The notes under the pieces are model-generated. The model ran no database searches. It was not told where the DNA came from and saw nothing but the letters and a program-made list of their open reading frames with translations. The position numbers and the translations under genes are program-made. This document shows positions 1-37,691 of a stretch of DNA of 64,000 bases, one piece after another; position 1 is the first letter of the stretch, and every line of letters begins with the position of its first letter. Location: the NCBI GenBank assembly GCA_029880325.1, contig JAOUOP010000020.1:33124-97123 (forward strand). Reading direction: 5' to 3'. Origin of the DNA: Myxococcales bacterium. Its GTDB lineage: Bacteria; Myxococcota_A; Polyangia; Polyangiales; JAFGIB01.

Positions 1-210
1 ACGCGCGCCATCGGCAAGCCGTCCGACGAGGTGCGGCGCGCCGTCGAGTACGGCCTCGACCACGATCTCCTGCGCTATCGGAGCGAAGCTGGCGTCTGCC
101 GGTGGCAGTTTGCCGACTCCGAGGAGTCCCTGCGCGTGACCGAGGTGGTGCGCACGGCCCCCCACGGGAGCTTGCAGCAGGCCCTCGAAGCGCCCATCGC
201 CGCCGAGTGA
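1..210 (+). CDS. 3' end of a hypothetical protein (runs off the window edge)
   Basis: Frame 1 is open from base 1 to TGA at 208-210 with GC3-rich codons (TRAIGKPSDEVRRAVEYGLDHDLLRY...); convergent with the next gene. Confidence 0.6.
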   Translation, partial: TRAIGKPSDEVRRAVEYGLDHDLLRYRSEAGVCRWQFADSEESLRVTEVVRTAPHGSLQQALEAPIAAE

Positions 211-224
211 GCCGTCACCAGCGC

Positions 225-1454
225 CTACGCGCGCTGCGCATAGGTCCAGCTCAGGAAACGCCCGATGGCGGCGACCACGTGGGCGGTGCGCGTGGAGTGA
301 AAGATTTCGAAGGCGTGATGGGCGCCTTCGATCTCCGCATAGGCCACGGGCTTTTCGGCGTGGCTACGAAGTTTGGCCACGAAGCTGCGAGCCTCGTCCA
401 CGTGGACCAGGGTGTCGTGGGTGCCGTGGATCACGAAGAAGGGCGGCAGCTGTCCCTCGATGCGGTAGAGGGGGGAAGCGCGTTCGAAGCGCTCAGGATC
501 TTCCGAAACCCGGCTCTTGAGCACCCAGCGCGATACCAGTCCGTGAATGGTGGCGGCTGAGGGGTGCCCCAGGCGATTGGTGAAGTCGTAGACGCCGTAG
601 AGGGGCACGCAGGCACAGACCGCGGTGTCGACCTCCTCGAAGCCCGGCTGGTATTCGGGATCGCCCGCGGTCAGCCCCACCATCGCCGCCAGGTGACCGC
701 CGGCCGAACCGCCGGTCACGGCCACGAAATTCGCATCGCCCCCGTAGTCGGCAATGCGCTCGCGGATGAAGCGCAGGGCCAGCTTGGCGTCGACGAGGTG
801 ATCGGGGAAAGTGGCGCGCGGACTCAGCCGGTAGTTGATCGAGACGCAGACCCAGCCCAGGCGCGCCATGTGCAAGAGCAGGGGCACCGCCTGCTGGCGC
901 TTGTGGCCGGTGAACCAGCCGCCGCCGTGGATCTGCAGCAGCACCGGTGCGGCCCGGGCGCCGGCTTTCGGCGTGTAGATGTCGAGCAGGTGGCGGGAGC
1001 CTTCGCCCTCGGCGTAGCGGATGTTGCGATGGAGCGTGACCTTCGGGTCGCGGCGCAGCCAGGGCATCAAGAGATGGCGTGCGGGCGGCTGCGCGCGGGC
1101 GGCCTCTTCATCGATGGCCTGTGCGTAGTCGGGGCCGAGCGCCTCCTGCAGCGCGCTCTCGGCCTCGGGACCGGCGCTGCGCGAGCGCGCCCAGGCCCAC
1201 AGAAGCCCGAGCCACGACAGCAGCGTCAGCAGCATCGCCAGCTGCCCGGGCCAACGTTCGAGCGCGCCGGCGGCCGTGAAGCCGGCGCTGACCAGCACCT
1301 GGAGCAGCAGGTGATGGCCCGGCAGCTCGCTCCAGAGCCAGCCCGCCACAAAGCTCGGGAAGCCGAGCATCGCCACGCGCCGCGGCGGAAAGTGGGCGTT
1401 GAGGGTGAGGATGCTGCCGGCAAGGGCCAGCGCGAGAAAGAGTTCGGCGATCAC
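225..1454 (-). CDS. Alpha/beta hydrolase, HSL-family esterase/lipase with N-terminal membrane segments
   Basis: HGGG oxyanion motif, GGSAGGH nucleophile, HGTHDTLV Asp and HAFE His; hydrophobic N-terminus. Confidence 0.9.
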   Translation of the reverse strand: MIAELFLALALAGSILTLNAHFPPRRVAMLGFPSFVAGWLWSELPGHHLLLQVLVSAGFTAAGALERWPGQLAMLLTLLSWLGLLWAWARSRSAGPEAESALQEALGPDYAQAIDEEAARAQPPARHLLMPWLRRDPKVTLHRNIRYAEGEGSRHLLDIYTPKAGARAAPVLLQIHGGGWFTGHKRQQAVPLLLHMARLGWVCVSINYRLSPRATFPDHLVDAKLALRFIRERIADYGGDANFVAVTGGSAGGHLAAMVGLTAGDPEYQPGFEEVDTAVCACVPLYGVYDFTNRLGHPSAATIHGLVSRWVLKSRVSEDPERFERASPLYRIEGQLPPFFVIHGTHDTLVHVDEARSFVAKLRSHAEKPVAYAEIEGAHHAFEIFHSTRTAHVVAAIGRFLSWTYAQRA

Positions 1455-22275: not shown

Positions 22276-23915
<1,640 letters not shown>

Positions 23916-24374
23916 CCCGCCGCCTCCCGCGCCGCAAACGCTCGCGGGCGCCGCCCGGCGTTGCCCGGTGCCATCGGTCCACGGTGCTGCCCGCGGGTCG
24001 AGACCGCTCGTCGCCGGGCCTTCAGCTGGGGAGATGCAAAAGCCAGCATCAAGGGCTTAAGCCTATCGCAAGCACTCCCCAATTGCGTACGCGGGGTCTG
24101 CGGTCTGGCGCGATGTGTCAGTCGGTTCCGGGTTTTTCGGCTCTACCGTGCGCGGAAAACCTGCTCTTTTGTCTAGTCATCCCTGCGCCAGCGCAATTAT
24201 CGATGCCACCCCACCTTGCATTCACCCACACGGCAGTGAAAAAAAGGTACAGTGCTTGAACGAACGCTGGGTGCCGTCTCGTCCAAGGGTATCGAGGCCG
24301 GCTCCTGGCGTGCCACCCGCGCGGTGTGCCGCCGGCCTGCGGAACCTCGTTCAACCCTCGTCCTGGCCCATCGA

Positions 24375-25190
24375 GTGAAATCCCTGCCCCTCAGCGTTCG
24401 TTCCACGTTGGCTCTGGCCGCGAGCGCCCTATTGGCGCTGCCCTTTGCTGCGGGCACCGCCCAGGCCTTTTCGAGCCCCTCGAGCTATCTGTTGGAGCCG
24501 GAGGTGGGTGGCGGTGGCGGGCGTTGGTTCACGGGATCGCCCGCCGATGGCTACGGCTGCGACGTCTGTCACGAGGGCGGCGAAGCAGCCGACCTCAGCG
24601 TGTCGGGCCTGCCCTCGGGGCGGGCCATACCCGGCAGCTCCTACGAGGTGACCATCAGCTGGCCATTCGAAGTGGAACACGTGGCGATGGTGGTGGAACT
24701 GACCGACGAGTTCTCCCAGCCGGTCGGCGAGCTGTCGCTCAAGGCTCCCACCGCGATGCAGCTCGATGAGCTGTGCGGGCCGGATTTCGGTGGCTTCCCC
24801 GCCACCGAGCTGCACCAGACCGAGGACGGTCGTCAGCTCGTCAGTCTGATCGACTGCGGCGCCCGGGTCGTGCGCTTTCAATGGACCGCCCCCCAGGTCT
24901 TCACCGGCACGGCCTGGCTGAGCGCGGGTCTGGTCGTGTCCAACGAGGATGCCGCGGCCACCGGCGATGGCGTCACCTTGGTTCACCTTCCGGTCGCCGG
25001 AACACAAAACTCCCAGGCGACGCGAGAGTTGCTGGAGGGGAGCTGCAGCGTGAACGCGGCGCCCGGTGGCCGCGGCGCGTCTGCCATCGGCTACGGATTG
25101 ATAGTTTCCTGCGTGCTCGTGTTGATGCTGCGAGCCCGACGCAGCGGGATCGCGAAAGGAGCGGTGCGATGCAGAACCGATCGGCGATGA
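24375..25190 (+). CDS. Secreted CxxCH protein with Reeler/choice-of-anchor-V-like domain and MYXO-CTERM-like anchor
   Basis: Signal AQA, FTGSPADGYGCDVCHEGG, FQWTAP, C-terminal GSCSV...hydrophobic helix-RARR. Confidence 0.7.
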   Translation: MKSLPLSVRSTLALAASALLALPFAAGTAQAFSSPSSYLLEPEVGGGGGRWFTGSPADGYGCDVCHEGGEAADLSVSGLPSGRAIPGSSYEVTISWPFEVEHVAMVVELTDEFSQPVGELSLKAPTAMQLDELCGPDFGGFPATELHQTEDGRQLVSLIDCGARVVRFQWTAPQVFTGTAWLSAGLVVSNEDAAATGDGVTLVHLPVAGTQNSQATRELLEGSCSVNAAPGGRGASAIGYGLIVSCVLVLMLRARRSGIAKGAVRCRTDRR

Positions 25191-26101
25191 TTCGAGAGCG
25201 TTCGAAGTCAGTGAAGTCCCAGGCGGTCCATGCTGCGTTGCTGGTGTCGCTCGCCCTGCTTGCAGCCGCCTGCGTTGCCGCCGAAGGCGAGCCCGCTTTG
25301 GGAGAGGTGATGGCCACGCCCGGGCTTCCCATCGACAGCAGCGCCTATCAGCCCTCGGCCGCCGGACCGAACGCGGCCGCGGCCAACGGCGTCGCACCCG
25401 GGGCGCCCACCACGGCAGCTGGCGCGGCACCCGCTCCGGCAGGCAACGACCCGGCAGCGGCCATGGGCAGCGATCCGGCAGCAGCAGCCATGGGCAGCGA
25501 TCCGGCGGCCTCGGGTGCCGCGGGTGCCCCCGCCGACGCCACGACCGACCCGGCCGCCACCGGTGCCGCGGGCGCGGCTGCCGCGACCGACCCGTCCGCC
25601 ACGATCGACCCGTCCGCCGCCGCGCCGGCGTCGGCACCGGCGTCCGGCGGCACGCTCACGATTTCTTTCACCACCGTCGACCTCCGCGGTCGCTACGCGC
25701 CGCGCAACATCGGCGCCGTCTGGGTCGCCACCGGCAGCGGCTCCTTCGTCAAGACGCTGGAGCGCTGGGCCGGTGTGCGCGCCAATCACCTGAGCAAGTG
25801 GAATGCGGCTTCGGGCGGCTGGTCGTCCTTCTTCGGCTTCGGCGCCACCGACGACGAACTCGACGCCGTCAGTCGCGCGACGCTGACCTCCCACCAGATG
25901 CATAGCCTGACCTGGGACATGGTCGGCAACGACGGCGCGGTGGTTCCCGACGGCTCCTACAAGGTCATGGTCGAGATGACCGACAACGAGACGGGCTCGG
26001 CCGTCGGCGAGGTCGCCTTCGACAAGGGTCCGGGCGCCGTGAATCTCAGCGGGCAGACCTCGGCCGCGTTCACCGGATTCAACCTCGACTACCAGCCCTG
26101 A
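25169..26101 (+). CDS. DUF2271 domain lipoprotein with Ala/Pro/Asp-rich linker
   Basis: AAAC lipobox; GRYAPRNIGAVWV...FVKTL..W...HLSKW...DAVSRAT...LTWD...VPDGSYKVMVE; AAGGAG RBS. Confidence 0.8.
   Translation: MQNRSAMIRERSKSVKSQAVHAALLVSLALLAAACVAAEGEPALGEVMATPGLPIDSSAYQPSAAGPNAAAANGVAPGAPTTAAGAAPAPAGNDPAAAMGSDPAAAAMGSDPAASGAAGAPADATTDPAATGAAGAAAATDPSATIDPSAAAPASAPASGGTLTISFTTVDLRGRYAPRNIGAVWVATGSGSFVKTLERWAGVRANHLSKWNAASGGWSSFFGFGATDDELDAVSRATLTSHQMHSLTWDMVGNDGAVVPDGSYKVMVEMTDNETGSAVGEVAFDKGPGAVNLSGQTSAAFTGFNLDYQP
25461..25506 (+). repeat. Intragenic direct repeat (CCATGGGCAGCGATCCGGC x2, 27-bp period) encoding AMGSDPA
   Basis: Two exact 19-bp copies at 25461 and 25488. Confidence 0.8.
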
Positions 26102-26323
26102 ATCACCCGAGGCGATGCAATAACCGCCAGCTTGCGGTATGGAGCATTGCGCTGCACCGCCGCCGTGGCTTCGAGTTCCGCCCGACGCGCCCTGCGCTAC
26201 CACCACGTTCTGGAGCACCCGCCCCTAGCCTGCCCGCACCCCTGACAAGGCCTTCGAGCGTTGTGCACCGCCATTGCTGCGAGCGGCGGCGCTCGAGCAC
26301 CACAGGCCCGCGTTTGCCTTGCC

Positions 26324-27580
26324 ATGCCTCGCTACCCCAAGACCGCGCGAGAAAATCGAAGCTCTCGAGCCGCCCGCCCGCGTGTGAACTCCTTGCACGG
26401 CCGCGCGCTCGGTGGGCTACTTTTGGCTGTCTGCGTGCTGCTGATGCCGCGCCCGGGGATCGCCGAGGATCAGGCGGCGGTGGCCACCTACGTGCGACGG
26501 GATAGCGATCGCACCCTGGTGGTCGCACCGCGCCTGCGTCTGCGCACCGGGGTCACCGAAGCCACCCACCTGAACATGGTCTACGCCGTCGACGTCTGGA
26601 CCAGCGCCTCCATCGATATCATCTCCTCGGCTTCGCCCTATCCGGTGACCGAGCAGCGCGACGAGGTCGATCTTTCGGTTGACCACGAGTTTAGCGATAT
26701 CACCGTCACCGCCGCCTATCGCTACTCGCGCGAGCCCGACTACGTGTCCCACGGCGGTTCGGGAGGTTTCGGCTACGACTTCGCGGACAATAACTCCACC
26801 ATCGCCGTCGGCATCTCCGGCAGCAGCGATAGCGTCGGTCGCGCCGGCGATCCCAACTTCGATCGCTCCGCCAGCACCTTCGGCTCTCGCCTCGCCTTCA
26901 CCCAGGTTCTGGATGTCGACACGGTGGCCCAGGGCATCTACGAGTACAGCCGCATCGGTGGCTATCAGAGCAGTCCCTACCGCTTCGTTCCCATCGGCGG
27001 CGCCAACTGCACGGAAAAGATGTCCAAGAACGCTGCGATGGACGTCGCAGTCGACCCTGCGACGGGCATCCCGCTGGACCCGGCAGCGGCCGGCGTATTC
27101 CAGACGCAGCTGGCGAGCCTGTGTCCCCCCGAGCACAACCCGACCCTGAGACAGCGCCACGCCATGAGCGCGCGCGTGCGGCGCTCGCTGGGCGAAGCGC
27201 TTTCGGCCGGACTGACCTATCGCTTCTACCTGGACGACTGGGGCATCACGTCCCACACCGTCACCGCAGACATGGGCTACATGCTGAGTGAGCGCACCAT
27301 GCTGGGCGCGCGCTATCGCTTCTACACCCAGGGCGCCGCCGACCATTATCGGAGCTTCTACGAGATCGAGCTGCCCTACCTGACGCGCGACAAGGAGCTG
27401 TCGCCGCTGACCGGCCATCGCCTGGTGCTGGAGCTCGAACACGCCATCCCATTTCCCGACGAGCGCAAGCTGGTAACCAGCGCCTCGGTCTCGCCGCTCC
27501 TCTACTTCTATCCCGACTTCCCCCTGCGCGAACGCATCAGCGGGGTGGAGTTCAACCTGGCCCTCTCGTTGACCCTATGA
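26324..27580 (+). CDS. DUF3570 domain outer-membrane beta-barrel protein
   Basis: VDVWTSASIDIISSAS, EQRDE, SREPDYVS, GYQSSPYR, YRFYLDDWGITSHT, RYRFYTQGAA, DKELS. Confidence 0.85.
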   Translation: MPRYPKTARENRSSRAARPRVNSLHGRALGGLLLAVCVLLMPRPGIAEDQAAVATYVRRDSDRTLVVAPRLRLRTGVTEATHLNMVYAVDVWTSASIDIISSASPYPVTEQRDEVDLSVDHEFSDITVTAAYRYSREPDYVSHGGSGGFGYDFADNNSTIAVGISGSSDSVGRAGDPNFDRSASTFGSRLAFTQVLDVDTVAQGIYEYSRIGGYQSSPYRFVPIGGANCTEKMSKNAAMDVAVDPATGIPLDPAAAGVFQTQLASLCPPEHNPTLRQRHAMSARVRRSLGEALSAGLTYRFYLDDWGITSHTVTADMGYMLSERTMLGARYRFYTQGAADHYRSFYEIELPYLTRDKELSPLTGHRLVLELEHAIPFPDERKLVTSASVSPLLYFYPDFPLRERISGVEFNLALSLTL

Positions 27581-28827
27581 CGATGCGCTGCGCCGATCCG
27601 AACGCCCTGGCACGTGCGGCCCTCGTCGCGGGTTTCGTGCTGCTTTCGCTGTGGCTCGTGGCTCCCGGAGTCAGCGCCCAGGGCGCGACGGTCTGCGTGA
27701 TCCGCGTCGACCCGGCGGCGGAGGGTGATGCGGCGGCCATCGAGCGGATGCTCGGTGGCGTCGCGGTCGTGCCCGACCCGGGCTACTACGCCGAAAGCAT
27801 GAACCGGGGCCTCGACCCCACCGGCGACATGGCGATGCAGCAGCTGGTGCCGCCCCTGGGTGTCACCATGGCGCTGGCACCCGTCAGCACCGATGGCCAG
27901 CAGCTGTGGATCGATTTTCGCCATGGTGCCACAGGGGCGGGTCTCGGTGTGGAGGCCATCCCGCTCGAAGGTGGCTACATCGGCGCCCAGGGGCAGCAGC
28001 AGCTGCAGGCCCTGGTCGGCCAGAAACTGCAGATGGTCATGGGCGGGGGCGGCCCGTCGGGTTTCACCGGTGGTGAAAGCGCATCCGACATGGGCTCGAT
28101 GGATGCTGAAGCAGGCGGCGAAGGGGATGCGGCTTCCGGCGAGAGTGAGGCGTTCGGCGAGCTGGCCGCGGAGCTCGGCATGGGCAGCCGCGCGATCAGC
28201 TGGCCGACCGCAGCCGGTCGCGACTCCGCCGACACCGGCTCCTTTCTGGCGGGCGGCGTGCGGGCGCGTTTCGCCTTCGGCGCCCGCGCCGGTTTTTCCT
28301 TCGGCCCGGAGTTCGCCTACCAGACCTCCATCGGACACGACGTCAAGGAGCTGCACATCGGCGGCGGAAGCTACGACTACGTGATCCGCGCCCATCGCTT
28401 CGAGGCGGCGCTCGTACCGCGCATCGCCTTCGATGACGACGGTGAATTCCGCCTCGAATTCGCGCTTGGCTACGGCGTGCGCAACCTGCGTCCCGAGTCC
28501 CACGACACGCTCACGCCGGCCTTCAGCGTCTCCGGTCCCCTCGTGCGCCTCGGCTTGAACATTCCCCTGGCCGGTCGCGCCCTACGCGTGCAGCTGCGCC
28601 CCGAGGCCCAATGGCTGGCCAGCGTGGGCGAAGGACTCGAGCAGCGCGGCGTGCAGTCCGGCGGCCTGGGTTACGGCTTCGAGGCCGGCCTCGCGGTGGG
28701 TGTACTGGACCCCATCGATTTTCACGCCAGCTACCGCATGGTGTGGGCGAGCTACGACACCCGCATCGGTGCGTCGGCCGAGGACAGCGAGAGCTTCTTG
28801 ATGCTGGGCGTGGGGAGGGCGCTATGA
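27577..28827 (+). CDS. Hypothetical exported protein, probable C-terminal outer-membrane beta-barrel
   Basis: Signal VSA-Q; alternating amphipathic strands to the C-terminus; ATGA-coupled on both sides. Confidence 0.7.
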   Translation: MTMRCADPNALARAALVAGFVLLSLWLVAPGVSAQGATVCVIRVDPAAEGDAAAIERMLGGVAVVPDPGYYAESMNRGLDPTGDMAMQQLVPPLGVTMALAPVSTDGQQLWIDFRHGATGAGLGVEAIPLEGGYIGAQGQQQLQALVGQKLQMVMGGGGPSGFTGGESASDMGSMDAEAGGEGDAASGESEAFGELAAELGMGSRAISWPTAAGRDSADTGSFLAGGVRARFAFGARAGFSFGPEFAYQTSIGHDVKELHIGGGSYDYVIRAHRFEAALVPRIAFDDDGEFRLEFALGYGVRNLRPESHDTLTPAFSVSGPLVRLGLNIPLAGRALRVQLRPEAQWLASVGEGLEQRGVQSGGLGYGFEAGLAVGVLDPIDFHASYRMVWASYDTRIGASAEDSESFLMLGVGRAL

Positions 28828-29348
28828 GTCGTCTGCGTTTGATGCTCTTTTGGGCGCTGCTGCTGCTGGCCGGCTGCGCCGAAGACGATGGCGCGCTGCT
28901 CATCGCCCAGCCCGATCGGGCGCAATTCGAGGCCGAGGTTTACCCCGTGCTCCTGCGCGACTGTGGTTTCGACCAGTGCCACGCCTCGCGCGAGCGCTTC
29001 TTCCAGGTCTTCGGACCCGGCCGCGCCCGCTACTCGCCGGACCTGCGTTCACTCGATCCGCCGGGCATGGCCGAGTTGGACCACAGCTACCAGCGGGCGC
29101 GCTCCATGATCGACCCGGTCAACCCCCAGGCCAGTCTGCTGCTGGTCAAGCCGCTTTCGGTCCAGGCCGGCGGTGCGGGGCACCAGGGCATCGACAGTCT
29201 GGGGCGCGACGTCTACCAATTCGACGCCGACCCGAGCTATCTCGTGCTATTGAATTGGGTGTTGACCAGCGCCGGCGTACCCACGGCCGGCGCCACTCCC
29301 CAGCCGACCCCCCAGCCCGGCCCTCTGCCGGTCCCGGCGCAACCATGA
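28824..29348 (+). CDS. Lipoprotein with atypical haem-c-like motif (CxxxxCH)
   Basis: LAGC lipobox; F..EVYPVL..DCGFDQCH...SLLLVKPL...GHQG...YLVLLNW, resembling planctomycete-type cytochrome domains. Confidence 0.7.
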   Translation: MSRLRLMLFWALLLLAGCAEDDGALLIAQPDRAQFEAEVYPVLLRDCGFDQCHASRERFFQVFGPGRARYSPDLRSLDPPGMAELDHSYQRARSMIDPVNPQASLLLVKPLSVQAGGAGHQGIDSLGRDVYQFDADPSYLVLLNWVLTSAGVPTAGATPQPTPQPGPLPVPAQP

Positions 29349-29590
29349 AGTCTTCACACAAGCGAATCTCGTCGACCCGCGCAGGGCTGGTTGCTGCGGC
29401 GCTCGTGGCCTGCGCCGTGCTCGGAGGCTGCGCCACCGTGGCGCCCTACGAGCGCGAGACCCTGGCCCGGCGCGACATGGAACTCGAAGGCAACGAGGAC
29501 ATGCGCGCCGGTGAGCAACACGCCAACGCCTACCGCGAGGGATCCTCGGGCGCCGAAGGCGCCAGCGGTGGTGGCTGCGGCTGCAACTGA
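29345..29590 (+). CDS. DUF4266 domain lipoprotein
   Basis: LGGC lipobox, VAPYERETLA...M, YREGSSG...GGGCGCN terminus. Confidence 0.9.
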   Translation: MKSSHKRISSTRAGLVAAALVACAVLGGCATVAPYERETLARRDMELEGNEDMRAGEQHANAYREGSSGAEGASGGGCGCN

Positions 29591-29622
29591 GACGCTTGTC
29601 GTAGGGGATGCGACCGGCGGCG

Positions 29623-29865
29623 TCAGCGCGTCGTGAACTGGATGACCTTGCCTTCCGGATCGATGGCGCCGACGAACCGGGCGTGCCCGAGGTCGACGAG
29701 ATCGCGACCCTGGATGCCTTGCGCCTGCAGACGCTCGCGCCTCGCCGCCACGCTCTCCCTTGCGAAACACTTCTTCGCCGGCACCTGCTCCCGCGCCAGC
29801 GGCGGCTCTGGCCATGGTCTTCGCTCCGTCTGGGTCGCCCCGGTGTTTCGGGACGTGGCCACCAT
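29623..29865 (-). pseudogene. Truncated VOC/glyoxalase-family fragment
   Basis: KKCF..ESVAARRERL...G...DPEGKVIQF matches a VOC C-terminal half; N-terminal half is missing. Confidence 0.45.
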
Positions 29866-29914: not shown

Positions 29915-31945
29915 TCAGCCGCCGGCGCGCTGGCGCTTGCCGTGGCGCGCTGCCCAGCCTGCGAGTTCGGGCGGGTAGCGCACGTGCACTGCGCCGCTGG
30001 CCTGGCGTCGATGCCAGTCGCAGGGCGCCTGGGGCACGCTGCCTTCGATGAAGAGTTCGCGCTTTTGGTGTGGGCAACCGGCCGCCGGGCGCTTGCCCGA
30101 CAGCGGACATACGGCGGCGGCGACCAGGCCTTCGGGCGCCTCCGGTAGCTGCAGCGGTCGACCCGCGCTGGCCAGGAGCAGGGCGGTCCGGGCCAGGGGG
30201 GCGGCCGCTTCCATGCCCGACAGGCCGCGGGTGGGCTGGCCGTCGAAGCGACCGGTCCAGGCCGCGGCCGTGAGCTCAGTGGTGGCGAAGATGGCCACGG
30301 TGTCGGCAAAGCCCCGCGCGGTGCCGGTCTTGACCGCGACGGGATAGGGAAGGTCGGCGGCCAGCTCGGTGCCAAAGACCTTCCGCCGCGCTTCGGGGTC
30401 GGCCAGCATGTCGAGGGTGAGCCAGGCGGCCTGGGCGCTGACCACGCGCTGCTCGGGCGGCGCGGGCGAAAGCAGCGGTGCCTCCCCGGGAGGCGTGAAG
30501 CGAAGCAATCCCTGGGCGTGGGTGGCCATGCCGTCGCGCACCAGAAAGCCATAACTCGCAGCCAAGTCGAGCAGGCGCACCTTGGCCGAGCCCAGGGCCA
30601 GGCGCGGGCCGTAGTCGTCGATGTCACCCTCCAGGCTGCCGACGCCCGCCCGCCGCAGGGTGTCCATCACCGCGCCGATGCCCACCTTTTCCAGCACCTG
30701 CACGGCGGCTAGGTTGTAGCTGCCGGCCAGGGCCTGGCGGTAGCGCGAGGGACCGTGCTCGCGCGGTGGCAGCTCGCGCACGCGATAGGCCGAGGCAACG
30801 TCGAAGGCGTCGAAGGCGATGCTGGCGGGGCTTTCGCCGCGTTCGATGGCGGTGGCGTAGACGAAGGGCTTGAGCGCCGAGCCCGGATGGCGCCTGCGGG
30901 TGACGATGTTGAGCTGTCCGCCAGGGAGATCGAAGCCGGCCGAGCCCACCATGGCCAACACTTGCCCACTTTGACTGTCGAGCACCACGGCCCCGGCCTG
31001 CTCGGCGCCGCGGGCCCTGAGCGCATCCACGTGCTCGCGCACGCGGCGCTCGAGAGCGCGGTTGAGTTCGAGATCCAGCGTGCTTCGCACCACGCCGCCG
31101 CGCGCGCGCAGCTCTTCCGGTAGCTCCTGCAGCAGCCAGTCGACGAAGTGTCCGGCCTCGAAGCTCGAATCCGCCCGCGCGAATTCAAGTGGCTCGGCCG
31201 TCGCGCGCTGCGCTGCTGCGGCCTCGAGCTTGCCCTGCTCGACCAGCAGCGACAGCAGGTGCTGGCGTCGGCGCAGGGCGCGCCCGCGGTGGCGCGTGGG
31301 ATCGTAGTAGCTGGGGTTGCGCGGCAGCACGGTCAGCAAGCTTGCCTCGCCAAGCGAGAGCGACGCGGCGGGCTTGCCGAAGTAGCGGCGGGCGGCGGCG
31401 TCGATGCCGTGGGCGCCGTGGCCGTAATAGGCGCGGTTGAGGTATTGCTCGAGAATTTCGCGCTTGCTGAGCACGCGCTCGACCCGCAGCGCCAGGTGCA
31501 TCTCGCGCAGCTTGTTCGTCAGGGTGCGCGGTTTGCCCGGCGAGTGCACCATGCGCATCAGTTGCATGGTCAAGGTGGAGGCGCCATATTCGATGCCCCC
31601 GGCCCGCAGGTTGAGCACCAGCGCGCGCAGCACGCTGTAGGGGTCGATGCCTTCGTGTTCGAAGAAGCGCTGGTCTTCGCTGGCCAGGAGCGTCAGAATC
31701 GCGTGGGAGCTGATGCGCTCGAGGGGTACCCAGGCGCTGCGGCCCTCGCGCGCTCCTCCTCTTCCGCCGGCCGGCAGTCGCCGCAGCACCCGGCCGTTGC
31801 GGTCCTCGATGATCAAGGGTTCGCCGCCCTCGGGGTACAGCGATTCGAGCGGGTAGGGCAGAAAGCTCGAGGCCAAAAGCAGCGTGAAGCCGAGGCAAAA
31901 GAGCGGTGCCAGGCTGCGGCCCAGGACCTTCAGTGCGCGCTTCAT
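29915..31945 (-). CDS. pbpC: Penicillin-binding protein 1C
   Basis: EDQRFFEHEGID, GASTLTMQL, PGSALKPF, SYN, KTGT; directly downstream of alpha-2-macroglobulin. Confidence 0.92.
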   Translation of the reverse strand: MKRALKVLGRSLAPLFCLGFTLLLASSFLPYPLESLYPEGGEPLIIEDRNGRVLRRLPAGGRGGAREGRSAWVPLERISSHAILTLLASEDQRFFEHEGIDPYSVLRALVLNLRAGGIEYGASTLTMQLMRMVHSPGKPRTLTNKLREMHLALRVERVLSKREILEQYLNRAYYGHGAHGIDAAARRYFGKPAASLSLGEASLLTVLPRNPSYYDPTRHRGRALRRRQHLLSLLVEQGKLEAAAAQRATAEPLEFARADSSFEAGHFVDWLLQELPEELRARGGVVRSTLDLELNRALERRVREHVDALRARGAEQAGAVVLDSQSGQVLAMVGSAGFDLPGGQLNIVTRRRHPGSALKPFVYATAIERGESPASIAFDAFDVASAYRVRELPPREHGPSRYRQALAGSYNLAAVQVLEKVGIGAVMDTLRRAGVGSLEGDIDDYGPRLALGSAKVRLLDLAASYGFLVRDGMATHAQGLLRFTPPGEAPLLSPAPPEQRVVSAQAAWLTLDMLADPEARRKVFGTELAADLPYPVAVKTGTARGFADTVAIFATTELTAAAWTGRFDGQPTRGLSGMEAAAPLARTALLLASAGRPLQLPEAPEGLVAAAVCPLSGKRPAAGCPHQKRELFIEGSVPQAPCDWHRRQASGAVHVRYPPELAGWAARHGKRQRAGG

Positions 31946-34900
31946 GGCTTCACCTGGAGTTTCATGGCCGCGGTGGAGGCGAAAAGCCCCGGCTCGTACA
32001 TGGCCTCGGCCCGCGCTGGCGCCGCCGTGAACTGTCCGGCCACCGACGCGCGCATCAGGTATTCGTAGACGTGGGTTCCGGCCGGCAGCCGATCGGAGAA
32101 GGCCCAGACGGCATCATCGCGCAGGGCGTGGTGATCCCAAATGCCGTAGCCATCGTCGTATGCGTGGTCGTAGTCCCGCTGTCGCTGACCGCCCTCCGTC
32201 GCGAGCTTGCCGTTGACCGCCTCGAAGCCCGCCGGCAGCGCGTCGCTGAGGGCCAGGTAGTAGACGCTCTCGCTGGACTTGACGCGTAGTCGTACCTTGA
32301 CCAGCTGGCCGCGGGTGACCCGCTCAAGGGCTGTTCCGCTTTCGGGGTCCAGGTATTCGCGCTCCACATGCAGCACGTCGGCCTGGGGCTCGGGCGCCTT
32401 GACCTCGCGAACGAAGTGCTGTCTCAGGCTCAGCTGCACCGGCTGGCTGCTGTCGAGTCCCAGCCGGCCGCCGCCGAGTTTGGTCAGTGGGCGACTCAGG
32501 CGCAGCACGGCCGGACCCTCGATGCGCTTTTCGAGCAGGCGCTTGCCGTCCAGCGTGACCGCCACCGTGGCCACTTGCCCCTCGAGGCTGCGGGCGTAGT
32601 CGGCCAGGGCGATCAGGGCGTAGAGGTTTTCCTGGGTATTGCCGAAGCGGCCACTCCGTCCGCGCGCCGAAAGCAACTCCTCGACCAGGGGTCGAATGCG
32701 CGGGTGGCCAGGTGCCGCCTCGATCAGCGCCGAAAGCGCGATGGCGCGGTCGCGGGTATTGCTGCTCATGTAGCGCGCCCGACCTTCCGACGGCCAGCCG
32801 CCGAAGCCCTGGTCGCCCCCTTCGAGGGCGTTTGCCAGCTCGGCCAGCAGCCCATCGCGCTGGGTGCTCTTGGCACCGCTGCGCGTCAGCGCCCGCAACA
32901 AAAATGCCTTGCCGTAGACGGGCAGCGCCGAGCGCGCTTCGAAGAGGCGCGCCAGCAGGCCCTGGTCGACCCGATCGTGGACGGCCAGAACGTGGGCCGC
33001 CATGGCCATGGTGGCGATTTCACCTCCGGGTGAAAGCGACCGCTCGGCGCCGTTGGCCCAGTCGCGCAGGGCATCGAGGCCCTTTTCGAGCGCGCGGGCC
33101 TCGACCTTCACGCCGGCGCGCTGGGCCTCGGTCAGGCCCATCATGGCGTAGGCCGTCAGGTGGGGGCGTTCGGTGCCGCCGGGCCACAGGCTGAAGTGGC
33201 CGTCGTCGTGTTGGTGGCGCAGCACCTTGGCCACGCCCTGCTCGATGAAGCGCTCGAGCTTACCGTCGCGTAGTTCGGCGAGTTTCATGCTGCGCGCCAG
33301 GTCTTCGACCTTCACCAGCGGAATCACGCCTGAGAGGGTCTGCTCCAGGCAGCCGTAGGGGTAGCGGATCAGATAGCGCAGGCTCGGCTCCAGCGACGCC
33401 AACCCGGTTTGGTCCACGCGTAGCTCCAGGCGGCTTTCCTCGGGCAGTACCTGCTCGGGCCAGCTGAGATCGAAGCTCTTTGCGCCCTGTAGCGTCCCTG
33501 CATGGAGGGTCGACCATTCGCTGTGCAGCGGGCGCTCGATGGGCAGGCGCTTCTCAAAGGCGTCGTGATGTTCGCCCAGCTGCACCGAAAGCAAGACCCG
33601 CGCCTCCGAGCGCTTGCCCGCGCTGACGGCGAAGAGCGCGGCCTTGCTCTCGCCGGCCTCGAGCGCCACGCGCTGCTCTCCATCCTTGGCCCAAAGGCCC
33701 TGGGTCTCGAGCGTGACCAGGGCTTCGCCCGCCGCGCCGCTGCGATTGTGGATCACGGCGCCCACCCACATGCGATCGCCGCTGCGCGCAAAACGCGGTA
33801 ACACGGGCTTGGCCACAAGCGCCTTGCTCACAACGATGCGGTGGTCACCGCTGCCGAAGCGAGCGCCGCGGTCGGCGGCCACCGCCATCAGGCGAAAGGT
33901 GGTGAGGTTGTCGGGTGCAACGAACGCGAAGCGGGCCTCACCGCGGGCGTCGGTGGTCAGCGCCGGCAGCCACAGGGCCGAGGCCAAAAAGCGCGAGCGC
34001 ACGCGGGGGCTCTCGCCTCCCGGTCCATCGCCGCCCTCCTCTTCGCCGCCGTCGGCGCCGTCCGGGGCATCGAGGCGCGCCACGCGCGTCCAGTTGGTGC
34101 TGTTGTCGATGCCGAGGCCAAAGGGCGCGTAAAAAGCGGCCATGGGGTCGGGTGTCTGGTAGTTGATCAGGGCCAGCACGCCCTGATCGGCGGCCGACAG
34201 GCTCAGCTCGGCGCGCACAGGCCTGTGCCCGTCGCGCACGCGCACCGTACCCATCACGCGCTCGCCGGGCTCGTAGCTCGGCTTGTCGGTCGCGATCTCC
34301 ACCTGAAGCCGCTGCTGCTCGGCGCTGACGGTCAGCTCGACCACGCCGAGCTTCATGCTCGGCCGGTAGCGGTCGCCCTGGCCACGACGGCCTTGCACCA
34401 CGGCCACAGAGGCATAGACGTTGGGCGCGTGCTCGCTCGACAGCGCCACATCGATGGCCTCCCCGGAACTCCCGGGCTGCACCACGAAGGCTTCGACAAT
34501 GCCGGCGCGCTCGAGCGTGACCAGCACGCTGGCGCCGGCGGTGTCGGCTCGCGGCAGGAGCTTGGCCTGTTGTCCGGGTTGATAGCGATCGCGGTCGGCA
34601 ATCACCGAGATGCGCTCGGAGCCGTAGTCGGCCCAGGCGCCGGCGCCGCTGCCGTAGATCCACAGCGGGCTCGAGGCCGCCACGCGCGTGCCGCGGCCGT
34701 CGTTGGCCTCGAGGGTCACCACGTACTCGCCGGTCTCCTCGACGCGTAGGTGCTCGGCCCGGGTGCCGGTGGTCAGCGTCAGCGCGCGCGTCCAGAGCGT
34801 CTTGTGCTCGCGCTTGCAGCTGCTGTAGACGCGATAGCGGCCCTCGTAGTCGCACTTCCAGCTGCGCTTGGTCAGGCTCAGCGTTGCGCTGCCCGCCATG

Positions 34901-37524
34901 GGTTGCCCGTCGCGGTCGAGGGAGACCAGCTCCAGGTTCACATCGCTTCCGGCCCGGTAGGCCCAGCGGCCGTGGCGCAGGCCCAGGTAGCGAAAGCTTC
35001 GGTGGGCGGTGGCGACGATGCGCTTGCTCACGCTCTGCCCGCTGGCGTCCTGGACCCGCAGTCGCAGCAGGTAGTCCTGGGGGCCATCGAGCGACTCGGC
35101 CCGATCGCGCAGCTCGATGTGAACGCGGCCGTTCTCGTCGGTGCGGGCCGTGTCTTCGGTGACGTAGTGGGTATCGCCTTCGTAGGCGTCGTAGAAGTCG
35201 TAGAAGTCGTCGTCGGTGGCGGCCTCGTCGAAATCGAAGCGGTCGTAGCCGGCAAAGCGTGCACGGTGAGGCCTGCGCTGCACCTCCCAGTGAACTTCGG
35301 CGTTTTTGACCGGCGCGCCGAAGAGGTAGCGTACCTCGAAGTCGAACTTCATGGCTTCACCCAAAGTCATGGGATCGCGCTTGGCTCCCTTGGGCTCGGT
35401 GATCTCGAAGCCCACGGCGCGGAACTCTTCGACGCTGAAGTTTTCGCGGAAGCTCTGGCCGCCGAGTTCGGCGCGCACCGTGTAGTCGCCGAGGTCGGCG
35501 GCCTCGGGCAGGGCCAGGTCGAAGTGGAAGCCGCCGAAGGCGCTGAGCTTGAGCTTCCTGTCGTAGATGCGCTCGCCGCGCGGATCGTCCACCGTCACCG
35601 CCACCCGGCGCGCGCGCGGCAGCCGTGGCGGCTCGGCCACCGCCACCTCGCGCAAAAGTCCCTTGAAGTGCACGGTTTCGCCGGGTCGGTAGATGCCGCG
35701 ATCGCTCTGGATCAGGCCGCGGATGCGCGTGAGGCCGGGACTGCGATCGCTGTGCACGCCAAAGTTCCAGGCCTGCAGCCCGTCATACCAGCGCCCATCG
35801 ACGATGGCGCGGTCGTCGTCTTTTTCGACCACAGCCAGAAGTCGCTGTCCGTAGGCGCCCAGGGCATCCTCGCGCGTGCGGGGCTTGCTGCGCGATAGCA
35901 GCTCGGTCGTGCCGGGCGTGTGCACAAGGCCCGAGGCATCGCTTGTACCGCTCCAAAGGCGTTTGCCCTCGCCGTAGAGCACCACCTGCGCGCCGGCGAC
36001 CGGTTGACCGTCGGATAAGCGGGTCACCCAGACCAGACCCGAAGCGGGACCGGCCTTCATCAGCACGCCCAGATCTGTGACGTTGCCCAAAAGGCGGTAG
36101 GGCTGGCGCCGGTAGTAGCGGGAGTCGTCGCCTTGGACCTCGGGAGCGCGCAGCTCCGCCAGGTAGAGCCCGCCCCTGGCCTTACTCTTGTTGCTGCTGC
36201 GGCACAGCTCGGGCAGATCCAGGTGCGTCAGCGTCCACTTGTTCTTGACGTCCGAGAGCTTCACCTCGCGCTCGACCAGGCGCAGCCCCAGACCTTGAAA
36301 GTCCAGGGGCTCGTCCTCGTCCCGGTAGTGGTAGGGGCCGTAGCTGATGCCGGCCGCCAACACCGAGGTGATCTTCGAGGCCGGCACGGCGGCGCAGGCC
36401 AGCGAGACGCGGCCGACATTGCGCGACCACAGGGGGTAGGGCTCGCCGCGGGCCTCGATGGCGTAGATGCCGGTCTGCACCTGGACCCGCGGCTTGGCGT
36501 CGGTGGTCTCGAAGCGCTGCACGAAGTCGCGGCCGAGGCGCTGGCCGAAGCGGTCGCGCAGTTCGCCGTCGACCCGCAGCTGGTAGCGGGTGGTGGCTGC
36601 CAGATCGATCTCGGCGCTGAAGCGGCGCGGTCCGCGCGCCACCCAGGCCTGCTCGAAGCCCTTGACCTCGGGTTTGATCGTGACCTTTTCCTTCAGCTCA
36701 TCGAGCGAGACCGGTGTGGCGAAAGTCAACTCGAGCCGCAGTTCATCCGGCGTCACCTTGCCGCTGCCCGAGGGGATGGCCAGCGTGACGCCGGCATCGG
36801 GCCGCACGGAAAAGAGCATGGCGAAGGGGGTGGCCAGGGGTTCGTTGCCGCCGTCGGCCGGCAGCCCCTGGCATTCGAAGAGATATCCCTCGCCCTGCTT
36901 CAAGGCCTCGGCGGTGGCCAGCTCGATGCGACTGGCCACGCGCTCGGGCTCGGGGGTCTCGAGCTTCACCCCATGCTTTCCGTCATCGGAGTGCAGCGAG
37001 CAGTGCTCCAGCACGTCGGCGGCCCTGACGGCGTCGCTGGCCTCCAGCCACAGCTCGGGTTGACTGGCAGTCCATTCACTGTCCAGGCCGGCGACGCGCT
37101 CGATGCTGAGCGGCCGGTGCACGAAACTCAGGGGCTCAGTGCGATCGAGGCGCGCGTGGAGGGGCGCCTTCAGCGAAAGCGTGTAGCGGGTGGCCGCCCG
37201 CAGCGGCGAAAGCGGCTCGACCTCGAGTGTCTGGCGGTCGCGATAGCGGGCTCGAAAGTGCAGGGCCGGCTCGATCGAAAGCGGCGCCTGCGCAAGCCAG
37301 GCGCCCACGGCCTCTGCTTCGACCACGGGCGCATCGAAACCGATGCGGATCGGGTTTTGCGTTGCAGCCCCGTCGTCCGCTTCAGGCGCGTCCGAAGCGC
37401 CGTAGTCAAAGCTGACCACGTGCAGCGCCTGCTGGGCGCCCCGCCCCAGGCCCGCGTCCACGCTCTTGCAGCTTATCAGCTGCGCGATGACAAGAATAAA
37501 CCACCAATCGATCAAGCGCCCCAT
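31942..37524 (-). CDS. Bacterial alpha-2-macroglobulin (MG2 domain lipoprotein)
   Basis: LISC lipobox, SDRGIYRPGETV, PDNLTTFR, intact thioester YPYGCLEQ, DALPAGFE, AEAMYEP. Confidence 0.95.
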   Translation of the reverse strand: MGRLIDWWFILVIAQLISCKSVDAGLGRGAQQALHVVSFDYGASDAPEADDGAATQNPIRIGFDAPVVEAEAVGAWLAQAPLSIEPALHFRARYRDRQTLEVEPLSPLRAATRYTLSLKAPLHARLDRTEPLSFVHRPLSIERVAGLDSEWTASQPELWLEASDAVRAADVLEHCSLHSDDGKHGVKLETPEPERVASRIELATAEALKQGEGYLFECQGLPADGGNEPLATPFAMLFSVRPDAGVTLAIPSGSGKVTPDELRLELTFATPVSLDELKEKVTIKPEVKGFEQAWVARGPRRFSAEIDLAATTRYQLRVDGELRDRFGQRLGRDFVQRFETTDAKPRVQVQTGIYAIEARGEPYPLWSRNVGRVSLACAAVPASKITSVLAAGISYGPYHYRDEDEPLDFQGLGLRLVEREVKLSDVKNKWTLTHLDLPELCRSSNKSKARGGLYLAELRAPEVQGDDSRYYRRQPYRLLGNVTDLGVLMKAGPASGLVWVTRLSDGQPVAGAQVVLYGEGKRLWSGTSDASGLVHTPGTTELLSRSKPRTREDALGAYGQRLLAVVEKDDDRAIVDGRWYDGLQAWNFGVHSDRSPGLTRIRGLIQSDRGIYRPGETVHFKGLLREVAVAEPPRLPRARRVAVTVDDPRGERIYDRKLKLSAFGGFHFDLALPEAADLGDYTVRAELGGQSFRENFSVEEFRAVGFEITEPKGAKRDPMTLGEAMKFDFEVRYLFGAPVKNAEVHWEVQRRPHRARFAGYDRFDFDEAATDDDFYDFYDAYEGDTHYVTEDTARTDENGRVHIELRDRAESLDGPQDYLLRLRVQDASGQSVSKRIVATAHRSFRYLGLRHGRWAYRAGSDVNLELVSLDRDGQPMAGSATLSLTKRSWKCDYEGRYRVYSSCKREHKTLWTRALTLTTGTRAEHLRVEETGEYVVTLEANDGRGTRVAASSPLWIYGSGAGAWADYGSERISVIADRDRYQPGQQAKLLPRADTAGASVLVTLERAGIVEAFVVQPGSSGEAIDVALSSEHAPNVYASVAVVQGRRGQGDRYRPSMKLGVVELTVSAEQQRLQVEIATDKPSYEPGERVMGTVRVRDGHRPVRAELSLSAADQGVLALINYQTPDPMAAFYAPFGLGIDNSTNWTRVARLDAPDGADGGEEEGGDGPGGESPRVRSRFLASALWLPALTTDARGEARFAFVAPDNLTTFRLMAVAADRGARFGSGDHRIVVSKALVAKPVLPRFARSGDRMWVGAVIHNRSGAAGEALVTLETQGLWAKDGEQRVALEAGESKAALFAVSAGKRSEARVLLSVQLGEHHDAFEKRLPIERPLHSEWSTLHAGTLQGAKSFDLSWPEQVLPEESRLELRVDQTGLASLEPSLRYLIRYPYGCLEQTLSGVIPLVKVEDLARSMKLAELRDGKLERFIEQGVAKVLRHQHDDGHFSLWPGGTERPHLTAYAMMGLTEAQRAGVKVEARALEKGLDALRDWANGAERSLSPGGEIATMAMAAHVLAVHDRVDQGLLARLFEARSALPVYGKAFLLRALTRSGAKSTQRDGLLAELANALEGGDQGFGGWPSEGRARYMSSNTRDRAIALSALIEAAPGHPRIRPLVEELLSARGRSGRFGNTQENLYALIALADYARSLEGQVATVAVTLDGKRLLEKRIEGPAVLRLSRPLTKLGGGRLGLDSSQPVQLSLRQHFVREVKAPEPQADVLHVEREYLDPESGTALERVTRGQLVKVRLRVKSSESVYYLALSDALPAGFEAVNGKLATEGGQRQRDYDHAYDDGYGIWDHHALRDDAVWAFSDRLPAGTHVYEYLMRASVAGQFTAAPARAEAMYEPGLFASTAAMKLQVKP

Positions 37525-37691
37525 GGCGACCCTCCGGCTTCGGAATGAGTTCCCCCCCAAAGAGAGCAAGAGGGGTGCCAAGGTCGGGCTGTGGCAATTG
37601 CGGGGAAAAGTGCCGCGCGCCCGGGCGCGCCGGTGCACTCGGCTCGGATTTACAGCATGGTGCTATAAATCATGGCTTCTGCGCGGGGGCC

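Follow-up and report, generated by a model that had tools for sequence, protein, structure and literature searches.

What do six exported proteins do together when their genes, at one locus of a myxobacterial genome, combine two flavinylation-associated families, two cysteine-histidine motifs of the haem type and two predicted barrels? The locus occupies positions 24375-29590 on the + strand of the window, by which we mean the whole 64,000-nucleotide (nt) stretch of DNA from a Myxococcales bacterium that was analysed. All six genes, here called g1 to g6, have the same orientation:

24375-25190, + strand: g1, 271 amino acids (aa), exported, with a CxxCH motif, a predicted beta-sandwich and a C-terminal anchor; no Pfam family
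25169 (alternative start 25187)-26101, + strand: g2, lipoprotein with a C-terminal DUF2271 domain
26324-27580, + strand: g3, DUF3570, predicted outer-membrane beta-barrel
27577-28827, + strand: g4, 416 aa, exported, with a barrel-like C-terminal domain; no Pfam family
28824-29348, + strand: g5, 174-aa lipoprotein with a CX4CH motif; no Pfam family
29345-29590, + strand: g6, DUF4266, 81-aa lipoprotein ending in GGGCGCN

We find that the class Polyangia (Myxococcota) has a conserved cassette of which these six genes are one copy. As to its role, we give about an even chance to an outer-envelope flavin/haem-type redox module derived from the published ApbE/DUF3570/DUF4266 system.

Layout and recurrence of the cassette

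Every product of the cassette is predicted to be exported, with signal peptides in g1, g3 and g4 and lipoboxes in g2 (LAAC), g5 (LAGC) and g6 (LGGC) recognized by eye in the sequences. ATGA start/stop overlaps are found at 27577-27580 (g3/g4), 28824-28827 (g4/g5) and 29345-29348 (g5/g6). The g1/g2 overlap is either an ATGA at 25187-25190 or, with the g2 start at 25169, 22 nt long, and g2 and g3 are separated by 222 nt. These coordinates and export signals confirm a preliminary description of the locus as six co-oriented genes for exported proteins, the last four coupled by ATGA and the first two overlapping. Its three family assignments also hold, with Pfam matches above the cut-offs for DUF2271 in g2 (PF10029; 39.1 bits, E 7.3e-10, cut-off 27.3), DUF3570 in g3 (PF12094; 133.4 bits, E 1.2e-38, cut-off 25) and DUF4266 in g6 (PF14086; 66.1 bits, E 5.4e-18, cut-off 27). 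A promoter scan of the cassette region gave 0 sites and a terminator scan 4 terminator-like sites versus 2.3 expected, 0 of them between genes. The sole Rfam match in 23800-29800 (E<=1) is a sub-threshold ASdes inside g3 (25 bits vs 40) that we take as chance.

The window's genome (8.16 Mb, 156 contigs) contains six DUF3570 loci, four DUF4266 matches and three DUF2271 matches according to Pfam, and the block g1-g2-g3-(g4)-g5 is found four times by tblastn, on contigs C131 (the window), C137, C87 and C79. Beyond this genome, 23 of 41 genomes of relatives have g1, often in several copies, among them 11 of the 14 from the same family. Twenty loci collected from relatives' genomes via g1, several of them ending at contig ends, carry g5 (16 loci), g3 (13), g4 (10), g2 (10) and g6 (8), and none carries ApbE.

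A larger set of 76 g1 loci was obtained by scanning with g1 motifs, one genome per species, and counting neighbours within 8 kb of g1. The most constant companion is g5 (69/76), followed by g3 (62/76), g6 (53/76) and g2 (45/76), while g4 is found in 24/76 loci by tblastn and in 38/76 with a family hidden Markov model (HMM). The labels of the 76 loci are of Myxococcota type throughout (Polyangiales, Sandaracinaceae, Nannocystaceae, Kofleriaceae, cultured Enhygromyxa and Nannocystis strains) except for a few generic 'Proteobacteria/Pseudomonadota bacterium' metagenome-assembled genomes. The exact order g1-g2-g3-g4-g5-g6 on one strand, whose conservation in relatives the preliminary description had left to a neighbourhood analysis, recurs in 4 loci (L118, L122, L131, L151). 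Three others (L145, L167, L173) keep the window's order with g6 alone inverted, and the commonest other layout has g5 then g1 (with g2 and/or g6) opposite g3 then g4. A gene content that stays constant while the order is shuffled across loci is the signature of a functional module, and since the grouping recurs in many genomes it is more than a chance neighbourhood.

Two more DUF3570+DUF4266 pairs are present in the window's genome without g1, g2 or g5 (C132:24304-25842 and C8:1500-2880). The C132 pair is about 1 kb from a DsbA-like thioredoxin-fold gene, and ApbE is near neither pair.

A predicted DUF3570 barrel with a probable DUF4266 partner

The g3 protein carries the tandem motif DVWTSAS-IDIISSAS (residues 90-104, nt 26591-26635), in which A95, S96, D98 and A103 are invariant among 37 sequences. 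In a tally of 80 distinct segments both motifs are kept in 39 of the 40 commonest forms, with one form gapped at the second. DUF3570 is a proven ApbE substrate, and a Chlorobium DUF3570 is flavinylated at two sites, according to Meheust et al. 2021 (eLife, PMC8238504). In g6 the CGC motif is encoded at nt 29576-29584; C29, C78, G79 and C80 are invariant among 37 sequences and the CGC is kept in 35/35 distinct segments.

The preliminary description had proposed predicting a complex of DUF3570 and DUF4266. Modelling g3 (48-418) with mature g6 (29-81) from row-matched alignments of 37 loci gave a score of 0.73, compared to 0.02 for the best of 3 controls. The mark for this score is reached by 116 of 157 solved complexes vs 2 of 215 mismatched pairs, which is a rough calibration since we used our own alignments. 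Contact agreement across the runs is at least 73 % and the pLDDT (predicted local distance difference test) of the partner at least 64. The contacts of g3 involve every other residue in many segments (52/54/56/58, 66/68/70/72, 193-209, 278-288, 300-312, 384-390 and 409-415), a pattern expected of lumen-facing beta-barrel residues. Residues 32-72 of g6 are buried in the modelled g3, and its last nine residues including the CGC are placed without confidence. Sequence-profile searches of the PDB with g3 and with g6 found no solved relative of either, and the score is thus unlikely to be recall. The model supports a DUF4266 plug in the lumen of the DUF3570 barrel.

Putative flavin acceptors and the location of ApbE

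A second potential flavin carrier is g2, a lipoprotein in which an Ala/Pro/Asp-rich low-complexity linker of about 125 residues precedes the DUF2271 domain. Among 47 distinct homologue segments, the acceptor residue of its putative flavinylation motif DAVSRAT (residues 232-238, nt 25862-25882) is T in 45 and S in 2. The preliminary description had named DUF2271 as an ApbE-associated flavinylation family; DUF2271 is indeed a proven ApbE substrate, and so is DUF3570 (PMC8238504).

Where, then, is the flavin transferase? ApbE has no match on the window's contig, nor does a TlpA-like query. The search for apbE elsewhere in the genome, which had been suggested, yields two matches in all, on contigs C19 and C106. 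The C106 ApbE closes an nqrABCDEF operon and the C19 ApbE is an orphan with no flavoprotein neighbour. The ApbEs that are linked to such clusters in distant relatives are 37-48 % identical to the C19 ApbE vs 30-36 % to the C106 ApbE. On C79 the genome also has a DsbD gene directly next to one for a TlpA-like redoxin, at a distance of about 45 kb to the C79 cassette; CcmE and CcmF/C-type genes for haem c maturation are present as well. The earlier statement that ApbE and thioredoxin are missing and that other genes stand instead is therefore right in cis; ApbE is replaced in position and not in function, and ApbE, DsbD and a TlpA-like protein are encoded elsewhere. ApbE is found in 21 of the 23 g1-positive relatives, and the two without it are 70 % and 54 % complete.

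The relation to the published system becomes visible in a broader sample. DUF3570 typically clusters with ApbE, a thioredoxin-like protein and DUF4266, often with DsbD, the DUF4266 carrying a conserved C-terminal CXC, in a system of more than 500 clusters (PMC8238504). In a phylum-wide sample of 301 genomes, 53 encode g5-like proteins. Of 20 g5-centred loci, the best of that sample, 19 have a DUF3570 gene and 12 an ApbE gene. The 12 ApbE-bearing loci belong to more distant relatives. ApbE is missing from the loci of the five closest relatives (same order or class), which have g1, accompanied or not by g2. Pfam scans of four distant ApbE-linked loci revealed ApbE, an AhpC/TSA-type redoxin and two large proteins with cytochrome-c-type motifs, for which the cytochrome-c matches (HZS_alpha + cytochrome c; beta-propeller + Cytochrom_C) are weak and mostly sub-threshold. 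As DUF3570, DUF4266 and the g5 family still adjoin ApbE in the distant relatives, the cassette is, judged by these gene comparisons, a derived layout of the ApbE-dependent DUF3570/DUF4266 system and not an ApbE-independent alternative. The preliminary description had inferred an undescribed conduit; the gene set is indeed conserved and we found it described nowhere in the literature searched, and it is at the same time a derived form of a published system.

The two large proteins of the distant clusters, both accompanying DUF3570 and DUF4266, are of separate kinds. One, of about 800 aa, combines a 7-bladed beta-propeller with a cytochrome c domain. The other, of about 1000 aa, has a g5-like domain in its N-terminal third, a hydrazine-synthase-alpha middle domain and a cytochrome c motif. 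These large proteins are found at L062:6595-9885, L065:10249-13116, L070:7323-9788 and L065:5591-7984.

It is conceivable that the redox motifs are relics and that the cassette encodes a non-redox barrel/lipoprotein complex with a structural, adhesive or transport-related role. ApbE and the thioredoxin-like gene are absent in cis from nearly all loci of the lineage, the canonical Gly of the flavinylation motif is lost and no cytochrome family is matched, all of which would fit. Relics would decay, however, and the acceptor Ser/Thr, the CxxCH, the CX4CH and the CGC are all kept at 25-55 % overall identity. Together with an ApbE in every g1-positive genome except the two incomplete ones, this conservation makes a non-redox complex very improbable in our view.

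Two candidate haem centres

Two haem-c-type motifs had been proposed for the cassette. The g1 motif is a true CxxCH, reading CDVCH (C62-H66, nt 24558-24572). The g5 motif is instead a CX4CH, C-G-F-D-Q-C-H (C47...C52-H53, nt 28962-28982). It is conserved in this form in 27/27 aligned g5-like segments and, in a tally of 96 distinct segments, in 39 of the 40 commonest forms, the other being C-x5-C-H. The family alignment also has an invariant H120 and a near-invariant M95. The 190 relatives of g5 that we retrieved are, where named, 'hypothetical protein', several of them labelled Polyangiales. In an AlphaFold2 (AF2) model of g5 (pLDDT 79.9), the N-terminal helix ends at the Cys motif and is followed by a middle and a C-terminal helix. 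Among the Atlas rows for g5, PSCyt1 is given for 16 % of the cluster's members and a 'cytochrome c domain' structure row has a TM (template modelling) score of 0.53. A search of PDB sequences with the g5 profile returned nothing meaningful.

Divergent beside g5-g1 in 17 of the 76 loci (e.g. L171:6467-7417, - strand) is a family of CxxCH lipoproteins of about 300-540 aa. The context of their motif is PSCyt1-like, the same as that of g5, and a further CxxCH domain is present at the C-terminus of some members. A tblastn search did not find the family in the window's genome.

In hhalign the g5 profile aligns with this neighbour family at a probability of 93.2 % (E 3e-7), and the alignment opens a gap of two residues within the motif. 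The family in turn has weak Pfam matches to PccH (10/16), Cytochrome_CBB3 (9/16, best E 9.6e-6) and Cytochrom_C (6/16), some of which may fall on the second C-terminal CxxCH domain of the longer members. In our reading, g5 is a cytochrome-c-like domain, divergent in sequence and with CX4CH as its site, and we lean towards the view that this putative site binds haem.

For g1, an alignment of 38 sequences shows A31, a G-rich run, C62, C65, H66, C134, C161 and C224 to be invariant, and the CxxCH is kept in 85/85 distinct homologue segments. A31 is at the signal-peptidase site and is followed by an aromatic first mature residue, the mature N-terminus being conserved. At the C-terminus, Cys224, a hydrophobic helix and an Arg-rich cluster (about nt 25038-25142) have by eye the layout of a MYXO-CTERM-type anchor. 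The MYXO-CTERM HMM (TIGR03901) matches 3/38 family members at E<0.01, the window's g1 not among them, and some g1 relatives are named MYXO-CTERM by the source databases. The NCBIfam model choice_anch_V (NF041895) scores g1 at 34.8 bits (35.6 in a genome search) with a cut-off of 42. By this profile g1 is a distant relative and not a member of choice-of-anchor V, because its score is below the cut-off and yet all 38 family members match at E<0.01. A profile search with the g1 alignment found close family members only among the best 120 of 338 matches at E<=0.001.

Fusions of g1 were observed with two other genes of the cassette. Of the 12 loci in which DUF4266 directly follows g1, all of Nannocystaceae-type layout, 10 have both genes in a single open frame (L123, L124, L132, L135, L140, L148, L152, L154, L157 and L189, at about 8001-8900 in each), and 7 of the best 120 g1 relatives have the same fusion. 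In this frame the DUF4266 lipoprotein signal and lipobox follow immediately on the Arg cluster of the anchor; the frame could encode a two-in-one precursor that is cut at the lipobox, or it could contain an internal start. The C79 paralogue of the cassette (100546-102270, - strand; L021) has g1 and g2 in one 574-codon frame with no stop between them, and the 523-aa database protein P0394 likewise combines a g1 domain with DUF2271.

The AF2 model of g1 (pLDDT 80.4) has a beta-sandwich at residues 75-208, a C-terminal helix after it and, before it, a low-confidence arm (pLDDT <50) with the CxxCH. Compared by VIA-align, the model resembles the F-spondin reeler domain (Z 11.5, 127 residues, 3.1 Å), cytochrome f (most rows Z 8.5-9.3, 139-145 residues, 3.5-4.3 Å), the copper-binding protein YcnI (Z 8.8) and generic pilin and integrin sandwiches (Z 8-9). 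One cytochrome f row, 1q90_A, reaches Z 9.8 over 181 residues but at 16.2 Å. The cytochrome f alignments start at model residue 33-34 (33..214 vs chain 4..250) and thus take in the arm. We treat the likeness to cytochrome f as a lead and not as a result, based on the CxxCH before the modelled sandwich and on the conserved mature N-terminus.

The same features of g1 bear on another explanation, in which g1 and g5 use their Cys and His residues to hold a metal ion in place of haem, the barrels form a channel and the flavoproteins reduce iron or copper for capture or import. The resemblance to YcnI and the reeler domain is in line with it, and a conserved mature N-terminus is expected of N-terminal metal ligation. 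In the published clusters of other bacteria, moreover, DUF2271 with PepSY-like, DUF4198 and ApbE has been proposed to act in iron reduction, and a VIT1 iron transporter is found in 25 DUF3570 clusters (PMC8238504). On the other side, g5 is homologous to a CxxCH cytochrome-like domain, and neither the recurrent neighbours of the 76 loci nor the window flanks include a PepSY, DUF4198 or VIT1 gene, a TonB-dependent receptor or any other metal transporter. Generic scans, the only kind run, detected no Fur-type or other regulatory element. We consider metal uptake unlikely.

The conserved cysteines could also be redox disulphides of an envelope thiol-disulphide system, in which electrons from DsbD/TlpA maintain or repair Cys or Met residues of outer-envelope proteins and no external acceptor is involved. 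The canonical clusters join DsbD, a thioredoxin-like protein, DUF3570 and DUF4266, whose CXC has been proposed to cycle (PMC8238504). A TlpA-like redoxin gene beside 15 of the 76 g1 loci, the DsbD/TlpA-like pair in the window's genome, the invariant CGC of g6 and the two further invariant cysteines of g1 (C134 and C161) point in the same direction. A plain disulphide, though, would not need the His after the second Cys, which is invariant too in g1 and g5. Nor would such a system account for the conserved flavin-acceptor residues, the surface-sorting type of the g1 anchor or the cytochrome-c-type CxxCH proteins of related clusters, weak and mostly sub-threshold as their Pfam matches are. We regard this explanation as quite unlikely.

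A possible second barrel

No family in Pfam or NCBIfam matches g4. Its N-terminal part is variable, and residues ~190-412 make up a conserved domain, predicted to be a small beta-barrel, to which most matches of its 233 representative relatives are confined. The structure neighbours of residues 183-416 (Atlas model, pLDDT 0.67) are OpcA-, omptin-, Pom- and OMP_b-brl-type barrels with TM scores of 0.60-0.75 by row; being outer-membrane beta-barrels, they agree with the extra barrel that the preliminary description had assigned to this gene. In the loci found positive for g4 by tblastn, g4 comes directly after g3 in 22 of 24.

A proposed redox module of the outer envelope

Taken together, these observations can be assembled into the redox module to which we give an even chance. 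In such a module g3 would be an outer-membrane beta-barrel and the g6 lipoprotein, with its CGC end, the plug of its lumen. ApbE, most likely the C19 orphan, would attach flavin mononucleotide (FMN) in trans to the two tandem Ser of g3 and to one Thr of the tethered g2. The CX4CH lipoprotein g5 and the CxxCH beta-sandwich g1, with its MYXO-CTERM-type anchor, would contribute two probable haem centres, at the periplasmic side and at the cell surface, and g4 would be an accessory second small barrel. Electrons would pass between periplasmic thiol or cytochrome carriers and a surface acceptor or donor, DsbD/TlpA being by analogy the candidate for inner-membrane input.

A number of observations weigh against the redox module. 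Flavinylation, haem binding, localisation, direction of electron flow and physiological substrate are all inferred, and so are the cofactor, localisation and activity of each of the six proteins. The cassette has no inner-membrane component for electron input, ApbE is in cis in 1/76 g1 loci and 0/20 loci of relatives, and the thioredoxin-like or TlpA-like redoxin gene that accompanies 15/76 loci is not in this window. ApbE is also present in 12/18 g1-negative relatives and its presence therefore does not discriminate. No Pfam family, cytochrome families included, is matched by g1 or by any of 34 members of g5. Foldseek found no PDB match for the g5 model at E <= 0.001 (best 3.7), and a wide VIA search reached at best Z 3.7, with FoxE (3.0) and PccH (2.6) not significant. 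For g1, cytochrome f at Z 9.0-9.8 does not stand out from generic beta-sandwiches (Z 8-9) and the reeler domain, which is not a haem protein, scores higher. The invariance of the CxxCH among the 76 loci is partly built in, as the pattern used to fish them contains CxVCH. The g3-g6 complex is a model for which only one pair was run. Finally, the canonical Gly of [S/T]GA[S/T] is replaced by Ser in g3 (TSAS, SSAS) and by Arg in g2 (SRAT).

For the last point a reference exists in a model substrate, where changing the Gly to Ala reduces flavinylation to about 50 % (PMC12052999). The idea that without the motif Gly there would be no flavinylation was considered and dropped because the ApbE-linked DUF3570s of relatives are likewise without the canonical Gly, e.g. 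DMMTCASVDVVSAAT.

A more specific version of the redox module is a trans-outer-membrane conduit without a multihaem wire. The core would be a DUF3570 barrel with two covalent FMNs and a DUF4266 CGC plug, fed by the CX4CH lipoprotein and ending in the surface monohaem protein g1, a flavin/thiol counterpart of porin-cytochrome complexes present in four to seven copies per genome in aerobic myxobacteria. In this conduit g1 would possibly be built like the large domain of cytochrome f, with the CxxCH on an N-terminal arm and the mature N-terminus as a possible sixth ligand. To the conduit as a whole we assign a small chance.

Whatever its cofactors, the cassette gives the little-understood ApbE/DUF3570/DUF4266 system what looks like a new layout in one myxobacterial branch. 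It unites DUF3570 and DUF2271, the two known ApbE substrates that are not FMN_bind, and adds three uncharacterised families (g1, g4, g5) that regularly accompany them. It also offers a testable architecture, a lipoprotein plug inside a barrel, in cultured carriers such as Nannocystis exedens DSM 71 (L154) and Enhygromyxa salina DSM 15201 (L124), both with the layout g5-g1-DUF4266-DUF2271/DUF3570. Should both flavin and haem be present, this would be a new electron route across the outer membrane of aerobic, predatory or polymer-degrading bacteria, in which extracellular electron transfer is unexpected. If neither is, the cassette still encodes a conserved outer-envelope complex.

Flanking and neighbouring genes

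The genes flanking the cassette in the window are on the opposite strand and unrelated to it, a Ser/Thr kinase and PBP1A upstream and PBP1C and alpha-2-macroglobulin downstream. The downstream pair (29915-37638, - strand) consists of a PBP1C-type transglycosylase/transpeptidase translationally coupled to a bacterial alpha-2-macroglobulin of 1898 aa. PBP1C and bacterial alpha-2-macroglobulin are a known pairing.

Neighbours that recur across the 76 loci were called with a crude criterion based on G+C content at third codon positions (GC3), and run-on open reading frames fused g1, g2, g3, g4 and g6 into one cluster, so the counts of such neighbours, here and above, are approximate. A PSCyt3/PSD2 (DUF1588/DUF1585) protein, a protein of about 240 aa that matches no family and one of about 470 aa whose signal is twin-arginine-like form a trio beside 8-10 of the 76 cassettes, upstream of g5 in L129, L130, L136, L144, L147, L160, L172, L178, L179 and L181. 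An enzyme of the MbnB/TglH/ChrH type, which modifies ribosomally synthesised and post-translationally modified peptides (RiPPs), is beside the cassette in 6 loci (e.g. L169:5541-6635), a homologue of the SBP56 selenium-binding protein also in 6 (e.g. L135:10535-11938) and a multihaem c3/c7-type cytochrome of about 1025 aa in 5 (e.g. L171:11616-14696).

Comparison with known systems

We found no description of the cassette or of the g1, g4 and g5 families in the full-text literature; the supplementary cluster tables of PMC8238504 were outside this search and may list such clusters. In full text, DUF3570 and DUF4266 appear only in the 2021 flavinylation paper, a 2023 myxosortase preprint and two unrelated macroalgal papers. 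The literature listed on choice-of-anchor proteins gave nothing relevant, and no paper was found that joins cytochrome f to the reeler domain. The preprint (Haft 2023, 10.1101/2023.06.07.544157) mentions in passing that a few Pseudomonadota encode a JDVT-CTERM protein with a Cys anchor next to DUF4266, DUF3570 and TlpA, and reads this as a partnership of the mature proteins. Like g1, the JDVT-CTERM protein has a Cys-containing C-terminal sorting signal and is encoded beside DUF3570 and DUF4266. It differs from g1 in its sorting signal and its phylum, and neither 'heme' nor 'cytochrome' occurs in the preprint, which mentions no haem motif.

The modelled likeness of g1 to the large domain of cytochrome f and to the reeler domain is accompanied by sequence similarity to neither, and the reeler domain carries no haem. 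At the level of the whole module, porin-cytochrome conduits of the MtrCAB type have an outer-membrane barrel with a redox protein inside it and a lipid-anchored haem protein at the surface. The g6 protein modelled inside the lumen of g3 recalls this arrangement, as a likeness of possible working and not of sequence or fold. The candidate cofactors of the cassette are FMN, a Cys pair and single haems, in contrast to the decahaem wires of MtrCAB.

The PepSY-like/DUF2271/DUF4198/ApbE clusters (PMC8238504) share with the cassette a DUF2271 with a conserved Thr in D-x-x-[S/T]-x-A-T. The cassette lacks PepSY-like and DUF4198 proteins, however, and its DUF2271 is on a long-tethered lipoprotein joined to DUF3570. 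The closest known relatives of the cassette in gene content are the DsbD/ApbE/DUF3570/Trx-like/DUF4266 clusters described in the same paper, with which it shares two tandem flavinylation-type motifs in DUF3570 and the C-terminal CXC in DUF4266. It differs from them in having ApbE, the Trx-like protein and DsbD encoded on other contigs, in the replacement of the motif Gly and in the addition of g1, the DUF2271 lipoprotein g2, g4 and g5.

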